Program-made: the position numbers and the translations under genes
The notes under the pieces: model-generated
What the model saw: only the letters and a program-made list of their open reading frames with translations
Told to the model about the DNA's origin: nothing
Databases searched by the model: none
Part shown: piece after piece, positions 52,418 through 61,689 of the stretch
Position numbering within the stretch: the first letter of the stretch is position 1
Layout of the letters: every line of letters starts with the position of its first letter
Assembly (NCBI GenBank): GCA_965214775.1
Contig: OZ243974.1
Location: 128,001-192,000 of the forward strand
Direction: 5' to 3'
Source: Nitrosopumilus sp.
GTDB lineage: Archaea; Thermoproteota; Nitrososphaeria; Nitrososphaerales; Nitrosopumilaceae
Length of the DNA: 64,000 nt

Positions 52418-53236
52418 TCACGTTCCAATCTGAATCTCATCTGAGCAATACTTTCTCAGAGTCTCGATTGCAGACAGGATTGCCAATCTGCTTGTTTTCG
52501 GATTGTTTGGGTCCGGAAAGTTTTCAGTCGTAAATGACATTCTTCCAAATTTTCCGGTAGCCTCTATATGATGAGTGTTTCTGTCAGTATCAGAGTCTGC
52601 GACGATTTTTACTCTGGTTTTTTCACTGCCCATGCCAGACAGAGAAAGCAAGGCAGCAACGTTGATGTTTGCCGGAAACAATGATACTGCCTCTCTTGCA
52701 GTTCCTTGGAAAATTACTGTCGGAGAAGAGATGTCATCCAGATTAATTTCAGAGGATTCAAAAAACTTTGCACCTTTAAGGGAGCGAGGATGTTTTGTGG
52801 TTGTAATGGAGAGGGATTCCAGTTCGTCTTTTACTGACTTTATCCCGTCAAGTCCGGCAATAGCCCCCGAGGGAAGATAGATGGCTTTTTTAAAGTCCCT
52901 GCATGCATCAGAGAAGATCTCCCATACTGATTCATCAAGCAAGGCGCCAACGCTCATTATCATCAGGTCTCGTCTGTTCTGCAGGACGCTCAGGCCCGCA
53001 TCCTTTACGGCATCCTGAGATGCAGCCTCTACGACAATGTCTACAGGATGCAGAGACAGCAGATGAGAGTTTTCAACTATTTCAGGCTTGGCAGTTAGTC
53101 TTGAAACCAGGGTTTGGGCTGCTTGCTTTGATTCATCAAAAACGTGTGTCAATGCTCCGTTGATCTTTCCAGAATCAATTGCCAGTGCAATTTGAGTTCC
53201 AATTGCGCCGCATCCCAAAAGACCGATTTTTTTCAA
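52418..53236 (-). CDS. nadX: aspartate dehydrogenase
   Basis: GCGAIG, SGAIAGLD, FPANINVAA, NPKTS; next to nadA. Confidence 0.92.
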   Translation of the reverse strand: MKKIGLLGCGAIGTQIALAIDSGKINGALTHVFDESKQAAQTLVSRLTAKPEIVENSHLLSLHPVDIVVEAASQDAVKDAGLSVLQNRRDLMIMSVGALLDESVWEIFSDACRDFKKAIYLPSGAIAGLDGIKSVKDELESLSITTTKHPRSLKGAKFFESSEINLDDISSPTVIFQGTAREAVSLFPANINVAALLSLSGMGSEKTRVKIVADSDTDRNTHHIEATGKFGRMSFTTENFPDPNNPKTSRLAILSAIETLRKYCSDEIQIGT

Positions 53237-53594
53237 CAGTGATGGTTGGATCTGTCTGTCTATTAATTAGTTCTAGGCGCAAAAGCAGAGTCCATGGTGA
53301 ATACTTTTAAGAAAAAACGGCAAAGCAGATGCAGTGAATGCAACAACTCGAGGAATTTTTCTTGGAATCTCTGCCATTTTACTAGTATCATCAGGCATGC
53401 CAGTCGATGCACAGGCAGTCGAATCGCCAAAAAAACAGATCAAAAGAGGGATTGCTCCTGAAGACATCCAATGTAATGTCTGGCTGGAACTATACTGACG
53501 ATCATTGAAAATTTCGCCTGATTACACGTCTTGTGAAGGTTTATAGACGCTATATGAAATCTTATCAGTATCCTGTGATATACAATTATCGTTG

Positions 53595-53712
53595 GGCCTG
53601 AGAGTCGATGTGATCTTACCATGTACAAGGGTGTTTTATAGACTGACTCGTAACAGCAGGCGGAAAGCAATATACCGCGTAGACGGTGAATGGGAGATTC
53701 CGCCCGGATCAG
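53595..53712 (+). ncRNA. putative IS110 bridge RNA (boundaries approximate)
   Basis: two stem/internal-loop/hairpin modules; TTTATAGA (53635-53642) equals the left target flank; ATGGGAGA (53690-53697) equals the element's right end. Confidence 0.72.
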
Positions 53713-53740
53713 GCATTTTGATCAAAAAGGAGGTGATAAC

Positions 53741-53965
53741 ATGATCAACTCGGCCACAGCAGTACGAAACGACTCAAGACTTGGTTCTATATATGAAAGG
53801 ATAAGAAAGAGACGAGGATGGCAGAAGGCAAAGATTGCAGTTGCAAGGCATATGCTGGAGATAATCTGGCACATGCTGACCACCGGAGAAGAGTACCGCA
53901 CTCAGAACAAGACTCTCACGCAGAGAAAGTATAAGAGGATGCATCGCATAGCAACATTGTCCTGA
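53741..53965 (+). pseudogene. IS110 recombinase C-terminal remnant
   Basis: AGGAGGTGA RBS then MI-NSATAVR..YERIRKRRGWQKAKIAVARHMLEIIWHMLTTGEEY; no DEDD domain. Confidence 0.8.
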
Positions 53966-54047
53966 TTCGGAACATCACGCTGGCAAGGGTCCACGGTAGG
54001 ATCTGGTACGATTTCATATGGGAGATCTCCGCCATGGCCCTTCTGAC

Positions 54048-55124
54048 ATGAACAAGACGAAAATCCTCACGGATGCCATGCGTGTCGAAAAGGATAACAG
54101 GGTTTATACCAGAATCCTAGCGGTGCGCTCCGTACTGCTTGGCAACACCACTGCACAGACCGCAGAGATTGCCGACGTGACACAGCGTACAGTACAGATG
54201 TGGGTTGAGAGGTTTGAGCTTGACGGCGTTGACGGTCTCCGTGACTCCCCCAACAGGGGGAAAAAGCCAAAGGTCCCAGTCGGCAGGATAAAAAAGATCG
54301 CCACGAGGGTGCGCAGGATGGAAAAGCTCACCCCGAAGAAGATGCGCAACTGGGTGCGCCGCAAACTGCATGTCACATACAGCGTTGGAAGCATCAGAAG
54401 AATCCTGCGCACGATGGGATTCTCGCTAAAGACGTCAACTACCAAGCTGGCAAATGCTGCCGACGCAAAGGAGGTAAGACGGTGGCAAAGGGAGGCAAAA
54501 GACACGATTAGGCTTGCAAAAAGGCGCGGATTCAGGATAACCGTACAGGACGAGTCGATATTCGTCAGTACGGGAAGGGACGGCAGAAAGTTCGTACAAC
54601 TTCAGGTCCTATTTAAACCGCCTAGGAATCTAGGAAGTATTTGCTTGCCAGTATAAATAGGACCTGAAGTTGTACGAAAGTTCTGGTCGCCAGTGGGGGA
54701 CAGGATCGAGGTGCAACGATCCGGCAGAAGGGAGCGCGTCGTGGTATACGGAACGGTTGCAGACGACGGAACCAGGCTGATGCACACATACGACAAGTTC
54801 AACAGCATAAACTTTGTGCGTTATCTCAAGCAGGCGCACAGAAAGTGGGGAAAGGTACTGATGGTGATGGACAACGCATCACAGCATAAGACCGGAAGGG
54901 TTCGTAGGTACCTGAAGAAAAATCCCGACGTTGTCCTGCTGTACCTGCCGGTAGCTAGGCCGGAGCTGAGTGGCATAGAGCCAATCTGGAAGGATGCCAA
55001 GTACAGGCTGGTCACATCTGCCTTTTACGATACGGCAGATCACCTCAAAAGAGCCGTCTCAGAATACTTTAGGACGTGTTCCATTAAAGTTGACATCTAC
55101 AAATATCTTGAGCGCCGCGTGTAA
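54048..55124 (+). pseudogene. IS630 transposase disrupted by a MITE
   Basis: nearly identical to 59113..60099; the 90-bp insertion introduces TAA at 54654-54656. Confidence 0.9.
54594..54675. mobile_element. MITE family F (82 bp)
   Basis: 22-bp perfect TIR GTACAACTTCAGGTCCTATTTA; 8-bp TSD GAAAGTTC; empty site in IS630 copy 2. Confidence 0.92.
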
Positions 55125-56033
55125 AGAAGGCGAAATTTTCAATGATCGTCAGTATAGTCATCAGGGATAACGGAAATCCGGCCTGTGTTACAGCAAGTAC
55201 TGCTGAAAAGATGAAGAGTTTGGGAATTGCCTTTGGCCTGGCTCCTGTTTCAAAATCCGAAAATCAGATCCAATCAATTCCAGCATCAGGTGAATCCACA
55301 GTCAGTTTCTACATTACAGATCATGATTTGAATTTGGCCCATGGCGGAGTGGAAATCATTGAGACGGACGGACTTTTGGAATTTACGGTTAATGGGAAAG
55401 CAATTCCCGGACCAGAAACAATGATTGAGACGGGTCCTAATACAGGTCAGTTTTATGTAAAGCTGGAACTGCCTGACACAGTAAATGGAAGACAAATCAG
55501 CCAGGATGACATCGTTCTGGTCAGATATCTGGATCAATCAGATGATGCAGGAGAGCAGAGAGTTCTAGTCAAATCTGTAAAACTTTCAAAAACGTTTGCC
55601 AAAATCCAGACGGCAGGAGGAGGCGGCTCAAGAATAGGACATGAGTTTACCGTGCGAATATACGAGTCGGATGCAAATATGGATTCCAAGGAAGTGGACA
55701 GAATTTCTCTGAGTTTGTTAGAGTTCAGAGGGGAGGGCGGAATCAGAACAACATTGGCAAATCCAAAATTTGACGCAAACTCTGCATTCCTTTTAGAAAC
55801 AGAACCCAACTCAAGCACATTTGAAGTGAAGGTAAAAATTCCAAGGGAGGTGGATGGAAAAACAATCCACATCGGAGACAAATACGAAATCAGATATATC
55901 GACAGATCCACTACGTCAGATACGGATGAGAAAGTGATCTTCAGTGGCAGGATTGGATGATGGTTTTAATGGATCAGGTTTGTCAATATTCAGTATAACC
56001 TAAAGATTTTATTCAAAACAACGAACTAGTTGT

Positions 56034-56870
56034 GTGCTCAATACTGTATACAAGGATGCCATCGTAAACAGAGACAAAATGCTCTCAGTTCTCAAAGGTC
56101 CCAAATTTGAGGAAATTATCAACAAGGCAAGAGAGAACTGGGTAGAATTTACGCCTGTAAAAGAAGAAGTTGTTACAGCAGGCATCGATAGTAGTTTCAA
56201 TAATACAAAATTTCAAGGAATTGATCTTTGGGCAACCACGGCTGTATCCATCAAAGATGATGGTGAAATTCTGGTTGATTTGCATGATTCAGGATTAGGT
56301 TCAGACACTAACTTGTCTAGAATTGCAAGTAGAATGGAAATTGAAGCCTGTGAGAAAACAGTGGATGCGGTAGATTTGGTTTTGATGGACGGATCTTTGC
56401 ATTCACAGTTTCTGACAAGACAATCAACGCTTGATGCACTTGTTGTAAAAACAATGAAAAAAAGAAACAATGTAATCTTTATTGCAAAAACATCAAACAC
56501 AAAAAAACAATTTGAAAAACTAGGTTCACTTGCCGGAGATATCTTCTATTACAATCATGTAACAAACAACCCCGGATTTAGTAAAATCTTTGTAGAGAGA
56601 AAATATGGCATAGACAAGATAATCTCTTCTACTTTTGTCAGGTTAAGCGACTCTACCCCCATTATCAAATTAGAATTTTTAGGAGGGCAAATTAATGAGC
56701 AGAAAATCAAGTCTGTAATGAACAAGATATACAAAACAAGTATTGGAGGCTATCCATATGCTCTCAAATTAGCTCACAACAACTGTAAGATATCCGACAA
56801 GGAACTTGGAAAAATGGTAAGCTTATTAGGATTAAGTAATGAGATTGGTTCAAGGGAGGTCTTGGGTTGA
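56034..56870 (+). CDS. nurA: DNA double-strand break repair nuclease NurA
   Basis: AGIDSS, LMDGSL, GYPYALKLAHNNCKI; overlaps herA. Confidence 0.9.
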   Translation: MLNTVYKDAIVNRDKMLSVLKGPKFEEIINKARENWVEFTPVKEEVVTAGIDSSFNNTKFQGIDLWATTAVSIKDDGEILVDLHDSGLGSDTNLSRIASRMEIEACEKTVDAVDLVLMDGSLHSQFLTRQSTLDALVVKTMKKRNNVIFIAKTSNTKKQFEKLGSLAGDIFYYNHVTNNPGFSKIFVERKYGIDKIISSTFVRLSDSTPIIKLEFLGGQINEQKIKSVMNKIYKTSIGGYPYALKLAHNNCKISDKELGKMVSLLGLSNEIGSREVLG

Positions 56871-58399
56871 GTCTTGGTTTTGTTGTTGGTGAATCCAAAC
56901 CAACTTTTGTAACTGCAATTACATCAAGAGCATTATCTGTTGGAGAATACATCAAAATTGGTTCTGGCCAAGGAGAGATCTTGGGATTGGTTGAAAGATC
57001 TTCAGTTTCAAGTGCGGCATTTGCTGATGTGAAAAATTTTGATGAAGCAGTAGAAAGTACTGAAATTGCAGAGATAAACAAACGCGATAAAACATTTACG
57101 GCCAATATTGGAATTTTGGGATTCCTCAGTAATTTGAAGAAGGGCAAGTCAATCATCCCCGCAATTCCGCCTATTCCAGGCACAGAGATAACACAGCCAA
57201 CAAAGCAGGACCTTGAAGAGATCTTCAGTCCTAAGGAAAATGGCTGGGTAAAGATTGGGAGTCTTTTGAGAAACAACACAATTGATGCATGTATTAATTT
57301 AGACAAAATAGTTTCAAGACATTTAGGAATTCTTGCCATGACAGGAATGGGCAAGAGCAATCTAGTCTCATTAGTTACAAAACAAATTTCCAGACTAAAG
57401 GGAACAGTAATTATTTTTGATTATCATAATGATTACACATCTCTAAACATTCCCAGAGTCAATGTGATTGATGCAAAAATCAATCCCAGGTTATTGGATG
57501 CAGACCAACTTTCAGAAGTTTTAGAAATTAGAGACGGTGCAAATGTGCAACAAAGAGTCCTAAGAATGGCATTCACAAAACATGTCAAAGAAGCAAAAGA
57601 ATTTTGGAGTAAGTTAGAAACAGAGATTGATTCTATCGTAAACTCTGAAGATAGAAGATTAAAGGAAGTCAGAACATCAGCTTACAGAGTTCAGGATATT
57701 ATCGAAGAGGCACAAAAAAGATTTGAAGATATTTTAGATCCCGACATGGGAGATCCCATCAGTTTTATCAAAGAAGGCAGGACAAATGTATTGAACATTT
57801 CGGAATTATCTGAAAAACAGGCAAATGTTGCTGTTGCGTTTTATTTACAACAGTTGCTCAAAGATAGAAAAGATGCAAGCATTGCAAGACATGGGAAAAC
57901 AAAGAGACAGAGAAATTTCAGATTCAATTCACCAATTTTTGTAATAATAGAGGAGGCACATGTGTTTATTCCAAAAGATCACGATACCAGTGCAAAATAT
58001 TGGGCTGCAAAAATTGCCAGAGAAGGAAGAAAGTTTGGTCTCGGTTTAGGAGTAGTTTCTCAAAGACCTCGGAGTGTGGATCTTAATGTGCTCAGCCAAA
58101 TGGGCTCCTTTGCAATAATGAAAATTATCCAAGAAGATGATCAAAGGCAGATAGCCTCAGCCACAGAGTCTACTAGCCGTGAATTAATTGCTCAATTGAC
58201 ATCTTTGAACGTTGGAGATGCGGTTTTGGTGGGTCAATGGACCAATTTGCCATCTTTGGTGCATGTTGAGGAAGTAAAAGAGAAAATAATGGGATCAGAT
58301 CAAAGTGCAGTTAATGCATGGGCTAATGCTGAGAAAATGAACAAGGTTGCCATAGAATCAACACAGGGCTTAATAAAGAAAGATTTGTTGTTAGACTAA
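56867..58399 (+). CDS. herA: HerA helicase
   Basis: RHLGILAMTGMGKS, IEEAH, IAREGRKFG, SQRP. Confidence 0.93.
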   Translation: MSLGFVVGESKPTFVTAITSRALSVGEYIKIGSGQGEILGLVERSSVSSAAFADVKNFDEAVESTEIAEINKRDKTFTANIGILGFLSNLKKGKSIIPAIPPIPGTEITQPTKQDLEEIFSPKENGWVKIGSLLRNNTIDACINLDKIVSRHLGILAMTGMGKSNLVSLVTKQISRLKGTVIIFDYHNDYTSLNIPRVNVIDAKINPRLLDADQLSEVLEIRDGANVQQRVLRMAFTKHVKEAKEFWSKLETEIDSIVNSEDRRLKEVRTSAYRVQDIIEEAQKRFEDILDPDMGDPISFIKEGRTNVLNISELSEKQANVAVAFYLQQLLKDRKDASIARHGKTKRQRNFRFNSPIFVIIEEAHVFIPKDHDTSAKYWAAKIAREGRKFGLGLGVVSQRPRSVDLNVLSQMGSFAIMKIIQEDDQRQIASATESTSRELIAQLTSLNVGDAVLVGQWTNLPSLVHVEEVKEKIMGSDQSAVNAWANAEKMNKVAIESTQGLIKKDLLLD

Positions 58400-58588: not shown

Positions 58589-58697
58589 TCCTCGTTCTCA
58601 TTGTACCGACAAGTCTGTTCTGCTGACATGCAAAATCCCATGCATGCAGAGCCGTGGATGGATCCTCGTTCTCATTGTACCGACAAGTCTGTTCTGC
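58589..58697. repeat. 35-bp direct repeat pair, 39-bp gap
   Basis: TCCTCGTTCTCATTGTACCGACAAGTCTGTTCTGC at 58589-58623 and 58663-58697. Confidence 0.9.
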
Positions 58698-59035
58698 CCC
58701 TCAGTTGTCCTGTCCCTTGCCTTTATGACATTTTCTAACGTGGTTATTCTGTCTGTAATCGATGCAATTGCGGTCTCAGGCTCACGATATGTTGGCCGGC
58801 GACCTTTTATGATGCCGATGTTGTGCGGGGGTTGTATTTGGATCAGTGGGATTAGGACATATCAAACAGATTGTCAAGGTACAGATGGCCACACACTTGG
58901 CACGTGCCACCAATGTTATTAGTTACAAATCAAAGTTACATCAGAATCATCATGGGAATTCCAGTCAACGGAACACCGGAGTTTGTAAAACTTTTCCAGT
59001 CTCTAAATAAAACAGAACGACTATTCAGGGAACTA

Positions 59036-60128
59036 TACTGACGATCATTGAAAATTTCGCCTGATTACACGTCTTGTGAAGGTTTATAGATCTCCGCCAT
59101 GGCCCTTCTGACATGAACAAGACGAAAATCCTCACGGACGCCATGCATGTAGAAAAGGATAACAGGGTTTATACCAGAATCCTGGCGGTGCGCTCCGTAC
59201 TGCTTGGCAACACCACTGCACAGACCGCAGAGATTGCCGACGTGACACAGCGTACCGTACAGATGTGGGTTGAGAGGTTTGAGCTTGACGGCGTTGACGG
59301 TCTCCGTGACTCCCCCAACAGGGGCAAAAAGCCAAAGGTTCCAATCAACAGGATAAAAAAGATCGCCATGAGGCTGCGCAGGATGGAAAAGCTCACCCCA
59401 AAGAAGATGCGCAACTGGGTGCGCCGCAAACTGCATGTAACATACAGCGTTGGAAGCATCAGAAGAATCCTGCGCACGATGGGATTCTCGCTAAAGACGT
59501 CAACTACCAAGCTGGCAGATGCTGCCGACGCAAAGGAGGTAAGACGATGGCAAAGGGAGGCAAAAGACACGATTAGGCTTGCAAAAAGGCGCGGATTCAG
59601 GATAACCGTACAGGACGAGTCGATATTCGTCAGTACGGGAAGGGACGGCAAAAAGTTCTGGTCGCCAGTGGGGGACAGAATCGAGGTGCAACGATCCGGC
59701 AGAAGGGAGCGCGTCGTGGTATACGGAACGGTTGCAGACGACGGAACCAGGCTGATGCGTACATACGACAAGTTCAACAGCATAAACTTTGTGCGTTATC
59801 TCAAGCAGGCGCGCAAAAAGTGGGGAAAGGTTCTGATTGTGATGGACAACGCAGCACAGCATAGGACCGGAAGGGTCCGCATGTACCTGGAGAAAAATCC
59901 CGACGTTATCCTGCTGTACCTGCCGGTAGCCAGGCCGGAGCTGAGCGCCATAGAGCCAATCTGGAAGGATGCCAAGTACATACTGGTCACATCTGCCTTT
60001 TACGATTCGGCAGATCACCTCAAAAGGGATGTCTCGGAATACTTTAGGACGTGTTCCATCAAGGTTGACATCTACAAATATCTTGAGCGCCGCGTGTAAT
60101 CAGGCGAAATTTTCAATGATCGTCAGTA
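59036..60128 (+). mobile_element. IS630-family element copy 2, intact (1093 bp)
   Basis: TIRs TACTGACGATCATTGAAAATTTCGCCTGATTACACG; TA duplication at 59034-59035 and 60129-60130. Confidence 0.95.
59113..60099 (+). CDS. IS630 transposase
   Basis: HTH domains; QDES, MDNAAQH, LPVARPELSAIEPIW DDE motifs. Confidence 0.93.
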   Translation: MNKTKILTDAMHVEKDNRVYTRILAVRSVLLGNTTAQTAEIADVTQRTVQMWVERFELDGVDGLRDSPNRGKKPKVPINRIKKIAMRLRRMEKLTPKKMRNWVRRKLHVTYSVGSIRRILRTMGFSLKTSTTKLADAADAKEVRRWQREAKDTIRLAKRRGFRITVQDESIFVSTGRDGKKFWSPVGDRIEVQRSGRRERVVVYGTVADDGTRLMRTYDKFNSINFVRYLKQARKKWGKVLIVMDNAAQHRTGRVRMYLEKNPDVILLYLPVARPELSAIEPIWKDAKYILVTSAFYDSADHLKRDVSEYFRTCSIKVDIYKYLERRV

Positions 60129-60364
60129 TAGATGCAATCTTAGAGGCACTTGCAGAAAACCCCCTACTAGGGGAACGGATAAGATTTGAATTGGTTCCAA
60201 AATCACTTAAGAAGCGGTACCCGGATCTTGACAACCTGTTGCGGGTTGAGGTAAACAAGAGATGGCGTTTGTTGTATACTTTAGTCGGATGGCCACAAAA
60301 CAAAACGGTGTATGTCTTGATGGCCATGCCTCACAAAGAATATGATAGACTGTTTGGCTATTGA

Positions 60365-61360: not shown

Positions 61361-61689
61361 CTCATCGTCGATCCCATGTACACGGTACATAATCTTAGTA
61401 CGCAGGCATGATTTTGTGACACAGGTACTTTTTGTGCTCAGCAATCAAGGCGACTTTCAGGCCCAACAGCAATGCCAGATCACAGGATACAGATAAGATT
61501 TCACACAGCGTCTTAAGCTTGGCAGTCATTTTACGGGAAACGATTTTGATAATCCCTTCATGAGGCGCACAAAATAAAATTTTAACCTTGAAGAATTCAA
61601 ATCAGATACAGACAAGCAGAGAAGGCGCACAAAATAAAATTTTGAAAAACGCTATTAATAAATAAACATAACTAAAACTGCATACAGAA

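Follow-up and report, generated by a model that had tools for sequence, protein, structure and literature searches.

The 64,000-nucleotide stretch analysed here (the window) belongs to the archaeal genome of a Nitrosopumilus species, which is assembled as one 2.83-Mb contig and whose small-subunit ribosomal RNA scores 1459 bits with the archaeal model and 1097 bits with the bacterial one. The loci of interest are two IS630-type elements on the forward strand, copy 1 (53491..55156), which has TA-flanked inverted ends, and copy 2 (59034..60130), together with a small IS110-family element lodged in the leader of copy 1. The open reading frame (ORF) of copy 2 is intact, and its 328-aa product contains DDE_3 (PF13358, 2.1e-20) and the helix-turn-helix (HTH) domains HTH_32, HTH_33 and HTH_29. 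The ends TATACTGACG...CGTCAGTATA, with TA on both sides, are found in three copies, so that the host has all the marks of the IS630 family, i.e. inverted ends, a TA duplication and a DDE_3 transposase with HTH domains at its N terminus. The two copies can be aligned except for an insert of 478 bp in copy 1 between GGTTTATAGA and TCTCCGCC; in copy 2 these sequences adjoin at 59081-59098, the place that an earlier note, made from the letters of this DNA alone, had recognized as the empty target. This target can be parsed as GGTTTAT-AG-ATCTCCGCC and is situated 23 nt upstream of the start codon (59113). The insertion point in the leader is immediately 3' of TTTATA, which may be the TATA box of the IS630 promoter.

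The inserted element (hereafter the mini) is 476 bp long, extends from 53547 to 54022 on the forward strand and reads ACGCTATATG...CATATGGG. One AG stands on its left (53545..53546), as the final two bases of the left target GGTTTAT-AG seen in the empty site of copy 2, and another on its right (54023..54024), followed by the right target ATCTCCGCC. From this copy only, the junction is ambiguous by 3 bp, since AGA is found at both sides. All left flanks of the family end in AG before ACGCTATATG, and after CATATGGG the right flanks of other copies read AG|TTCC..., AG|ATCAT... or AG|ATTGA...; because they diverge after AG, the repeated core is AG, not the AGA of the earlier note, and the element has the borders given above. 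Filled and empty IS630 leaders differ by the element and one AG alone, i.e. there is no duplication beyond the core. Near the ends lies a perfect 10-bp subterminal inverted repeat, the left copy of which, ATATGAAATC (53552..53561, forward strand), is conserved in all copies aligned, while the right copy, GATTTCATAT (54010..54019, forward strand), is followed by the 3-bp extension GGG (54020-54022). The left extension is 7 bp (AG and ACGCT, with one AG counted).

The mini corresponds to positions 1-205 and 1048-1333 of a 1,334-bp parent, examples of which are found at genome positions 2746645, 2030287 and 2751227. The deletion endpoints, ATGATCAAC in the start-codon region and ATGGTCAAC, form a 9-bp near-repeat. 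The parent encodes a protein of 359 aa (376 aa from an upstream ATG) with both domains of IS110 recombinases, DEDD_Tnp_IS110 (PF01548, 3.3e-28) and Transposase_20 (PF02371, 5.8e-21), and among solved structures the ISCro4 and IS621 transposases come closest to it, each at E ~1e-11. What is left of this protein in the mini is an in-frame ORF of 74 aa (53741..53965, forward strand), consisting of Met-Ile-Asn and the last 71 residues of the recombinase, in good agreement with the approximately 72 residues first estimated. It retains the native GGAGGTGAT and start codon; the catalytic domain is gone and the remnant has no Pfam match. The mini is thus, as had been supposed, an internally deleted derivative of the IS110 family and not an autonomous member. 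Its sequence matches 46 places in the genome, where three copies have stop-free recombinase frames. A second subfamily with about 68% DNA identity is also present, and similar repeats were found in 16 of the 150 related genomes searched.

The left end of the mini carries a predicted bridge-RNA gene (53596..53714, forward strand; 176.6 bits with our covariance model R1). It consists of a closing stem (P1, 53596-601/53709-714), a target module (P2, 53602-607/53644-649; P3, 53617-620/53630-633) and a donor module (P4, 53659-665/53698-704; P5, 53673-677/53684-688), all on the forward strand. Both modules had been proposed earlier and were found as described, the first with the stem GAGTC 53602-53606/GACTC 53645-53649 and TTTATAGA at 53635-53642, the second with GGCGGAA 53659-53665/TTCCGCC 53698-53704, the hairpin ACCG/CGGT and ATGGGAGA at 53690-53697. 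An alignment of both subfamilies by MAFFT, not fitted to any structure, gave P2, P3 and P5 with compensatory changes when analyzed with RNAalifold. This alignment misplaced the 3' part of the donor module, and R1 was therefore built from one subfamily, with 12 aligned left ends and a structure of five helices written by hand. R1 gave 27 matches in the 36 loci to which it was applied, 26 of them strong and including the second subfamily of the genome, as well as 19 of 29 loci from other genomes, where the recombinases are 42-56% identical and the match is each time directly upstream of the gene. The 27-row R1 alignment, one row of which comes from an unpublished genome (G283), was fitted to the model and thereby favours the structure; in it standard pairs are formed in 93.1% of cells, against 30-42% after a shift of the partners by 1-3 columns, compensatory changes are seen in 22 of 28 pairs, and none of 500 shuffles attains any observed pairing measure. 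Since U.G and G.U pairs are kept in 22-24 of the 27 rows, we assigned the RNA to the forward strand. An antisense RNA was considered and rejected; these pairs would turn into A.C mismatches and the core-pairing bases would come to lie at the 5' ends of the guides. In Rfam, searched over 52500-55500 with E up to 10, there was nothing relevant, the sole row being a weak small nucleolar RNA match outside the element. From these comparisons, a bridge (seek) RNA of about 120 nt is probably encoded in the left end; a common stem closes its two internal-loop modules, and it would be produced from the element and bound by the recombinase.

The loops of both modules contain candidate guides, all on the forward strand. 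In the target module the left target guide is TTTTATAG (53634..53641), of which TTTATAG (53635-41) is identical to the left target and core, and it is followed by the handshake AC (53642..53643), the first two bases of the element. On the 5' side of the same loop lies the right target guide GTGATCT (53610..53616), whose reverse complement AGATCAC agrees with the core and right target AGATCTC at 6 of 7 positions. In the donor module the left donor guide AATGGGAG (53689..53696) contains ATGGGAG, identical to the right end and core, and is followed by the handshake AT (53697..53698), with which the right target ATCTCC begins. The A after AG, in either loop, therefore opens a 2-nt handshake segment and stands outside the core. 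The right donor guide AGCA (53666..53669) is complementary to bases 3-5 of the left end (GCT) and mismatched at its fourth position; in the subfamily of the window it pairs at 3 of 4 positions and leaves the core uncovered. The right-hand guides had earlier been considered barely recognisable; comparison of related copies made both of them visible. A given 8-mer is expected about 0.003 times by chance on one strand of approximately 190 nt.

These loops change together with the flanks, which makes for a stronger test than the chance expectation. In 18 distinct pairs of flank and left target guide from the window's own genome, 81 of 108 variable positions agree, while shuffled pairs give a mean of 41.9 +/- 6.7 and none of 20,000 attains 81, which is not a true probability, as the copies are related. 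For the right target guide, read as reverse complement against core and right flank in eight complete elements, 31 of 40 positions agree (shuffles 23.0 +/- 2.6; 85 of 20,000 attain 31). Other classes of this guide and their flanks are CGGAACT/AGTTCC, ATGATCT/AGATCAT and GTAAACT/AGTTTAC, the last of which is found in the second subfamily, where the flank AGTTTAC matches the guide at four of five right ends. Orthologues from other genomes were read by eye; 16 could be scored (L043 and L056 could not, and the unpublished L038 was excluded). Left guide and handshake agree with the left junction at 9/9 positions in nine of them, 8/9 in two, 7/9 in two, 6/9 in two and 5/9 in one. In L045 and L046 TG replaces AG in both loops and at both junctions, and in orthologues with altered right ends (GGAAG, GGATG) the left donor guide is altered accordingly. 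We also searched for a contiguous right donor guide beside the core and found none; the comparison of orthologues placed this guide in the 5' strand of the donor loop, where the first three to four bases are complementary to left-end bases 2-5. Seven different triplets are seen there, in the pairs of guide and left end AGTG/CACT, AGCA/TGCT, AGCT/AGCT, AGTA/TACT, GGCA/TGCC, AACG/CGTT and GTC/GAC. By the definitions given in the available parts of PMC11208160 and PMC11208158, the four guides and the handshake segments are those of a bridge RNA.

The guide classes in the genome are each aimed at a repeated sequence. The IS630 leader class has 13 sites with the left flank, of which three are occupied at the same base and ten are empty, and one further copy with only its right end is found at that base. 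This is in accordance with the earlier proposal that the mini is programmed against the leader of a multicopy IS630, for its target loop matches this leader. The class TGACCGCCAAGCTTAT-AG-ATCATGGGCG has eight sites, three of them occupied, and is found 57 nt upstream of an ORF whose product has a DDE_Tnp_1 domain, while GCAATGCAAACAAAC-AG-ATTAGCGC is found at about 20 intergenic sites, also with three occupied. The window contains a second trace of the family, a 60-bp left-end fragment on the reverse strand (61451..61510), at a site resembling the second of these classes (..GCCAAGCTTAAG).

Several further observations concern targets and guides. The copies at genome positions 2169389, 1129867 and 2634798 carry right and left target guides that belong to different classes, or have a flank that matches the guides of another copy, which would fit recombination between copies in the target loop, or guidance by the RNA of another copy. 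One copy (1348582-1348669, minus strand) breaks off exactly where its left target guide ends, and a match of its right target guide is attached there (TTCAGTAG|TTCCGA); at 2788405-2788420 (plus strand) a right end is joined via AG to ACTGACTC, the sequence next after another mini's left target guide; and in a genome labelled as another genus (G250, L088:1490-1520) a copy begins directly after the left donor guide (TTTTATAG|ATTCCGCC). These joins look like scars of recombination at guide-coding DNA. Such DNA may act as a pseudo-site, because the DNA of a left guide has the sequence of the left target or left donor with the core. A full-length copy adjoins the left end of an IS630 at 2030287-2032718 (CATATGGG-AG-TTCC-TATACTGACG), and its target class, TCAGT-AG-TTCC, resembles the reverse complement of the IS630 end and flank (GTCAGTATAGTTCC). 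Two of the minis are themselves interrupted at base 375 (1122707-1123746; 2788695-2789735) by an insertion sequence of about 1,044 bp, which has at least eight near-identical copies and at whose borders 15-16 bp of mini sequence are duplicated. The ORF of this insertion sequence is similar to the DDE_Tnp_1-type element that has its leader targeted by the second class.

From the sequence comparisons it seems likely that the insert is a non-autonomous, deleted archaeal IS110-family element which has kept an IS630-directed bridge RNA. With the DEDD recombinase of a full-length copy, recombination at the common AG would link the circle junction CATATGGG-AG-ACGCTATATG to the target; AGC(A) of the right donor guide would be paired to left-end bases 3-5, and the handshakes AC and AU after the left guides are equal to the bases with which the partner DNA begins, a feature known also from IS621. 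In its history the mini would first have entered the leader of an IS630 ancestral to this IS630 lineage, the composite would then have been spread by IS630 transposition, also to the locus in the window, and, what we hold to be only a little better supported than its opposite, the mini lineage would have reached two or more other site classes, by movement or recombination, through the recombinase in trans.

The second of these steps is supported by another composite. At 1121552-1124177 the IS630 with its mini is 99.4-99.5% identical to that in the window, in host and insert, and the sequences outside the TA-flanked IS630 ends differ; because such near-identical composites have different outer flanks, the composite probably moved as a unit by IS630 transposition. 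The IS630 of this second composite still has an open frame of 336 aa. In the window, an 83-bp insertion near 54594-54676 divides the ORF of IS630 copy 1 into parts of 212 aa and 143 aa; this insertion is missing from the 99.4%-identical composite. G250 has the same composite, with the same junction, guides and IS630 flank, 97.8% identical over 462 bp and interrupted by a different insertion; a search with a single query found no full-length copy of the window's subfamily above 79% identity in that genome.

A number of points weigh against the reading of the mini as an RNA-guided element mobile in trans. The window copy probably arrived with its IS630 and not by its own guided insertion at this locus. 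Its guides are imperfect, with 6/7 positions in the right target guide, 3/4 in the right donor guide and a mismatched base before TTTATAG. The minimum free energy and centroid folds of this copy give the same helices as R1, but at -35.8 kcal/mol (z = -0.58) the single-sequence fold is no more stable than those of shuffled sequences, so that the structural support is comparative and not thermodynamic. The copy at 2169389 resides at a flank unlike its own left guide (1/6 positions), and IS630-directed guides are present on no intact full-length copy, all three of which are set to TCAGT-AG-TTCC. The mini at 2787937 lies within a rearranged tandem. In the mini at 808414, a recombinant, the left part with both guides is like the longer copy 549053, which has the same target, and the right part is like the minis; since recombination between copies is seen here, the deletion could spread without transposition.

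The most serious alternative, which we nevertheless regard as the less probable one, is decay in place. A full-length element in the IS630 leader would have lost its recombinase gene between the 9-bp repeats and would never have moved alone, and the other mini copies would have arisen by IS630 transposition of the composite and by recombination or gene conversion among family members. This would account for the near identity of the composites at loci with different outer flanks and for the recombinant at 808414. It is also in accordance with a longer copy (positions 1-573) that has the same right target guide and sits at the same base of another IS630 (1252186), and a deletion with near-repeats of 9 bp at its endpoints could recur. 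Decay in place does not, however, easily explain why the same deletion junction is found at four loci (181548, 1124121, 2787937 and 808414) belonging to three site classes, with derived bases shared by three minis and found in none of the longer copies. There is also a second, different mini type (positions 1-383 and 1223-1333, in frame) at three loci and two site classes, with left guides that match the flanks at 5/6, 4/6 and 6/6 positions. Furthermore, the minis have kept their ends, the two donor guides and each of the five helices intact, and their R1 scores (166.7-177.8 bits) equal those of full-length copies. Taken together, the shared junction and substitutions tip our judgement slightly towards mobilisation of the mini lineage in trans. 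The minis also have the traits of MITEs (miniature transposable elements with inverted repeats), as they are small (476 bp), lack a functional transposase, retain the ends of the autonomous element and occur in several copies at different sites. In both mini types the deletion is in frame and leaves the native start codon and ribosome-binding sequence in place (53741-53965 in the window; genome positions 2784518-2785004), with stub products that would be 74 aa and 77 aa; that both are in frame may be chance (about 1 in 9) or may point to a need for translation through the stub. Among the five public runs listed as containing the stretch, none is recorded as an RNA run. Two joints in the contigs of four public runs were examined, and neither is a sign of excision or of a circle. 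The one that skips the 478 bp has its explanation in the genome's own empty IS630 copies, and a back-joint with TTC between is the full-length copy beside an IS630 end.

It is more speculative, and in our opinion rather doubtful, that the minis are free-standing guide cassettes. R1 matches 29 bridge-RNA genes in the genome and only three recombinase frames are intact; because all members share the donor loop and the ends, any of the 29 could steer circles made by the three recombinase genes. If this were so, at least seven target specificities would persist and spread without an enzyme of their own, with the IS630-directed class carried only by gene-less copies, and the classes would be aimed at promoter-proximal leaders of rivals (IS630-type and DDE_Tnp_1-type) and at an intergenic repeat of about 20 copies. 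This would amount to an RNA-guided network of insertion sequences directed against insertion sequences in an archaeon, and its footprints would be the copies at sites matched by the guides of others (2169389, 2787937, 2634798) and the scars at guide-coding DNA.

It is very improbable that the structure is simply a leader which regulates translation or stability of the recombinase mRNA, with coincidental 8-mer matches to the flanks. It does lie in the 5' untranslated region, immediately before GGAGGTGAT-ATG, and the available text of PMC12288879 describes long structured leaders of ISPpu9 that inhibit translation, but in our family the loops change with the flanks in 18 pairs and 16 orthologues while the stems stay fixed, the core and donor guides co-vary with the element ends, and a pure leader would not stay intact in copies without the enzyme. 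Chance or an assembly artefact, such as repeat collapse or a chimeric join in IS630, hardly needs consideration, for in spite of the highly repetitive region and the short contigs of public runs that break at repeat borders, the genome is a single contig, the same junctions recur at a second locus and in another genome, and junction-bearing sequence is present in contigs of four runs.

The predicted RNA of this family shares several features with that of IS621 as described in the available parts of Durrant 2024 (PMC11208160) and Hiraizumi 2024 (PMC11208158). It is situated upstream of the gene for a DEDD recombinase, in the element's left non-coding end, and is built of two internal-loop modules, pseudo-symmetric to each other, one of which serves the target and one the donor. 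The left guides have the bottom strand as their partner and the right guides the top strand, target and donor share a dinucleotide core, a 2-nt handshake follows a guide, and the pairing of the right donor guide is weak or discontiguous. It differs from what these texts give for IS621 in the order of guides, since in each loop of our family the top-strand guide is 5' and the bottom-strand guide 3', whereas IS621 has the reverse (left target guide at nt 50-58, right target guide at nt 77-80; PMC11208158, in its available part). The core is AG on the gene strand and not CT, the handshake follows the left guides, the right donor guide lies off the core, and subterminal inverted repeats are present. 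With its inverted repeats and reversed guide order the family therefore falls outside the narrow IS621-like IS110 group, and the host is archaeal, with protein similarity at about E 1e-11. The IS1111 elements with seekRNAs (ISEc11, ISKpn4), as far as covered by the available text of Siddiquee 2024 (PMC11187229), are similar in other respects, namely the perfect subterminal inverted repeats with 7-bp and 3-bp extensions, a top-strand complement (here GTGATCT) 5' of the bottom-strand match (here TTTATAG), and relatives naturally reprogrammed to different sites. According to the same text the RNA of IS1111 elements is usually downstream of the gene, ISMtsp17 with its upstream non-coding region being one of few exceptions, and the repeat is usually 11-13 bp, while in our family the RNA is upstream in all copies and in the 19 orthologue loci and the repeat is 10 bp. 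By its ends and guide order the element is IS1111-like, with the RNA placed upstream.

Insertion into another mobile element has a counterpart in IS4321 and IS5075 of the IS1111 family, which, in work attributed to Partridge and Hall in 2003, reportedly insert in the terminal repeats of Tn21-family transposons. The likeness is in the fixed target inside another mobile element; our family differs in its targets, which are IS630-type and DDE_Tnp_1-type leaders between inverted repeat and start codon, in its archaeal host and in the several guide classes within one genome. The small gene-less MITEPpu9 of ISPpu9 from Pseudomonas putida is also bounded by IS110-family ends, has more copies than the transposase and was proposed to move with transposase in trans (PMC12288879, in its available part). 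According to that text it carries the small RNA Ssr9, while the minis keep a complete bridge-RNA gene and an in-frame ORF stub, in an archaeal host.

Bridge and seek RNAs, natural reprogramming among relatives, insertion into other mobile elements, a MITE of the IS110 family, archaeal IS110 recombinases (662 of them in a preprint by Vaysset et al.) and large-scale bridge-RNA mining are already in print. The element is a clear natural example of a mechanism that is known and not new. In open-access text we found no natural gene-less derivative that keeps its own bridge RNA, MITEPpu9 being the closest, and no worked archaeal example with several guide classes, though the supplementary tables of PMC11208160 and PMC11187229 may include the family. 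Bridge and seek RNAs were defined in 2024 in bacterial elements, and the present archaeal genome offers a natural reprogramming series, in which a single scaffold occurs with seven or more guide pairs that each fit a multi-copy target of their own, and two independent gene-less derivatives retain the bridge-RNA gene. The family provides test cases for guide rules in its IS1111-like order, AG core and handshake after the left guides, and the persistence of a guide-RNA gene as a satellite of the enzyme can be tested with it. For annotation, it accounts for about 29 repeats in this genome and for the interruption of some IS630 copies just upstream of the start codon.

Between the two IS630 copies the window also contains two perfect 35-nt direct repeats (58589-58697), 74 nt from start to start and separated by a 39-nt spacer. 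By their dimensions alone they are like a two-repeat remnant of a CRISPR array, and they are situated just downstream of an ORF of 510 aa (56867-58399).

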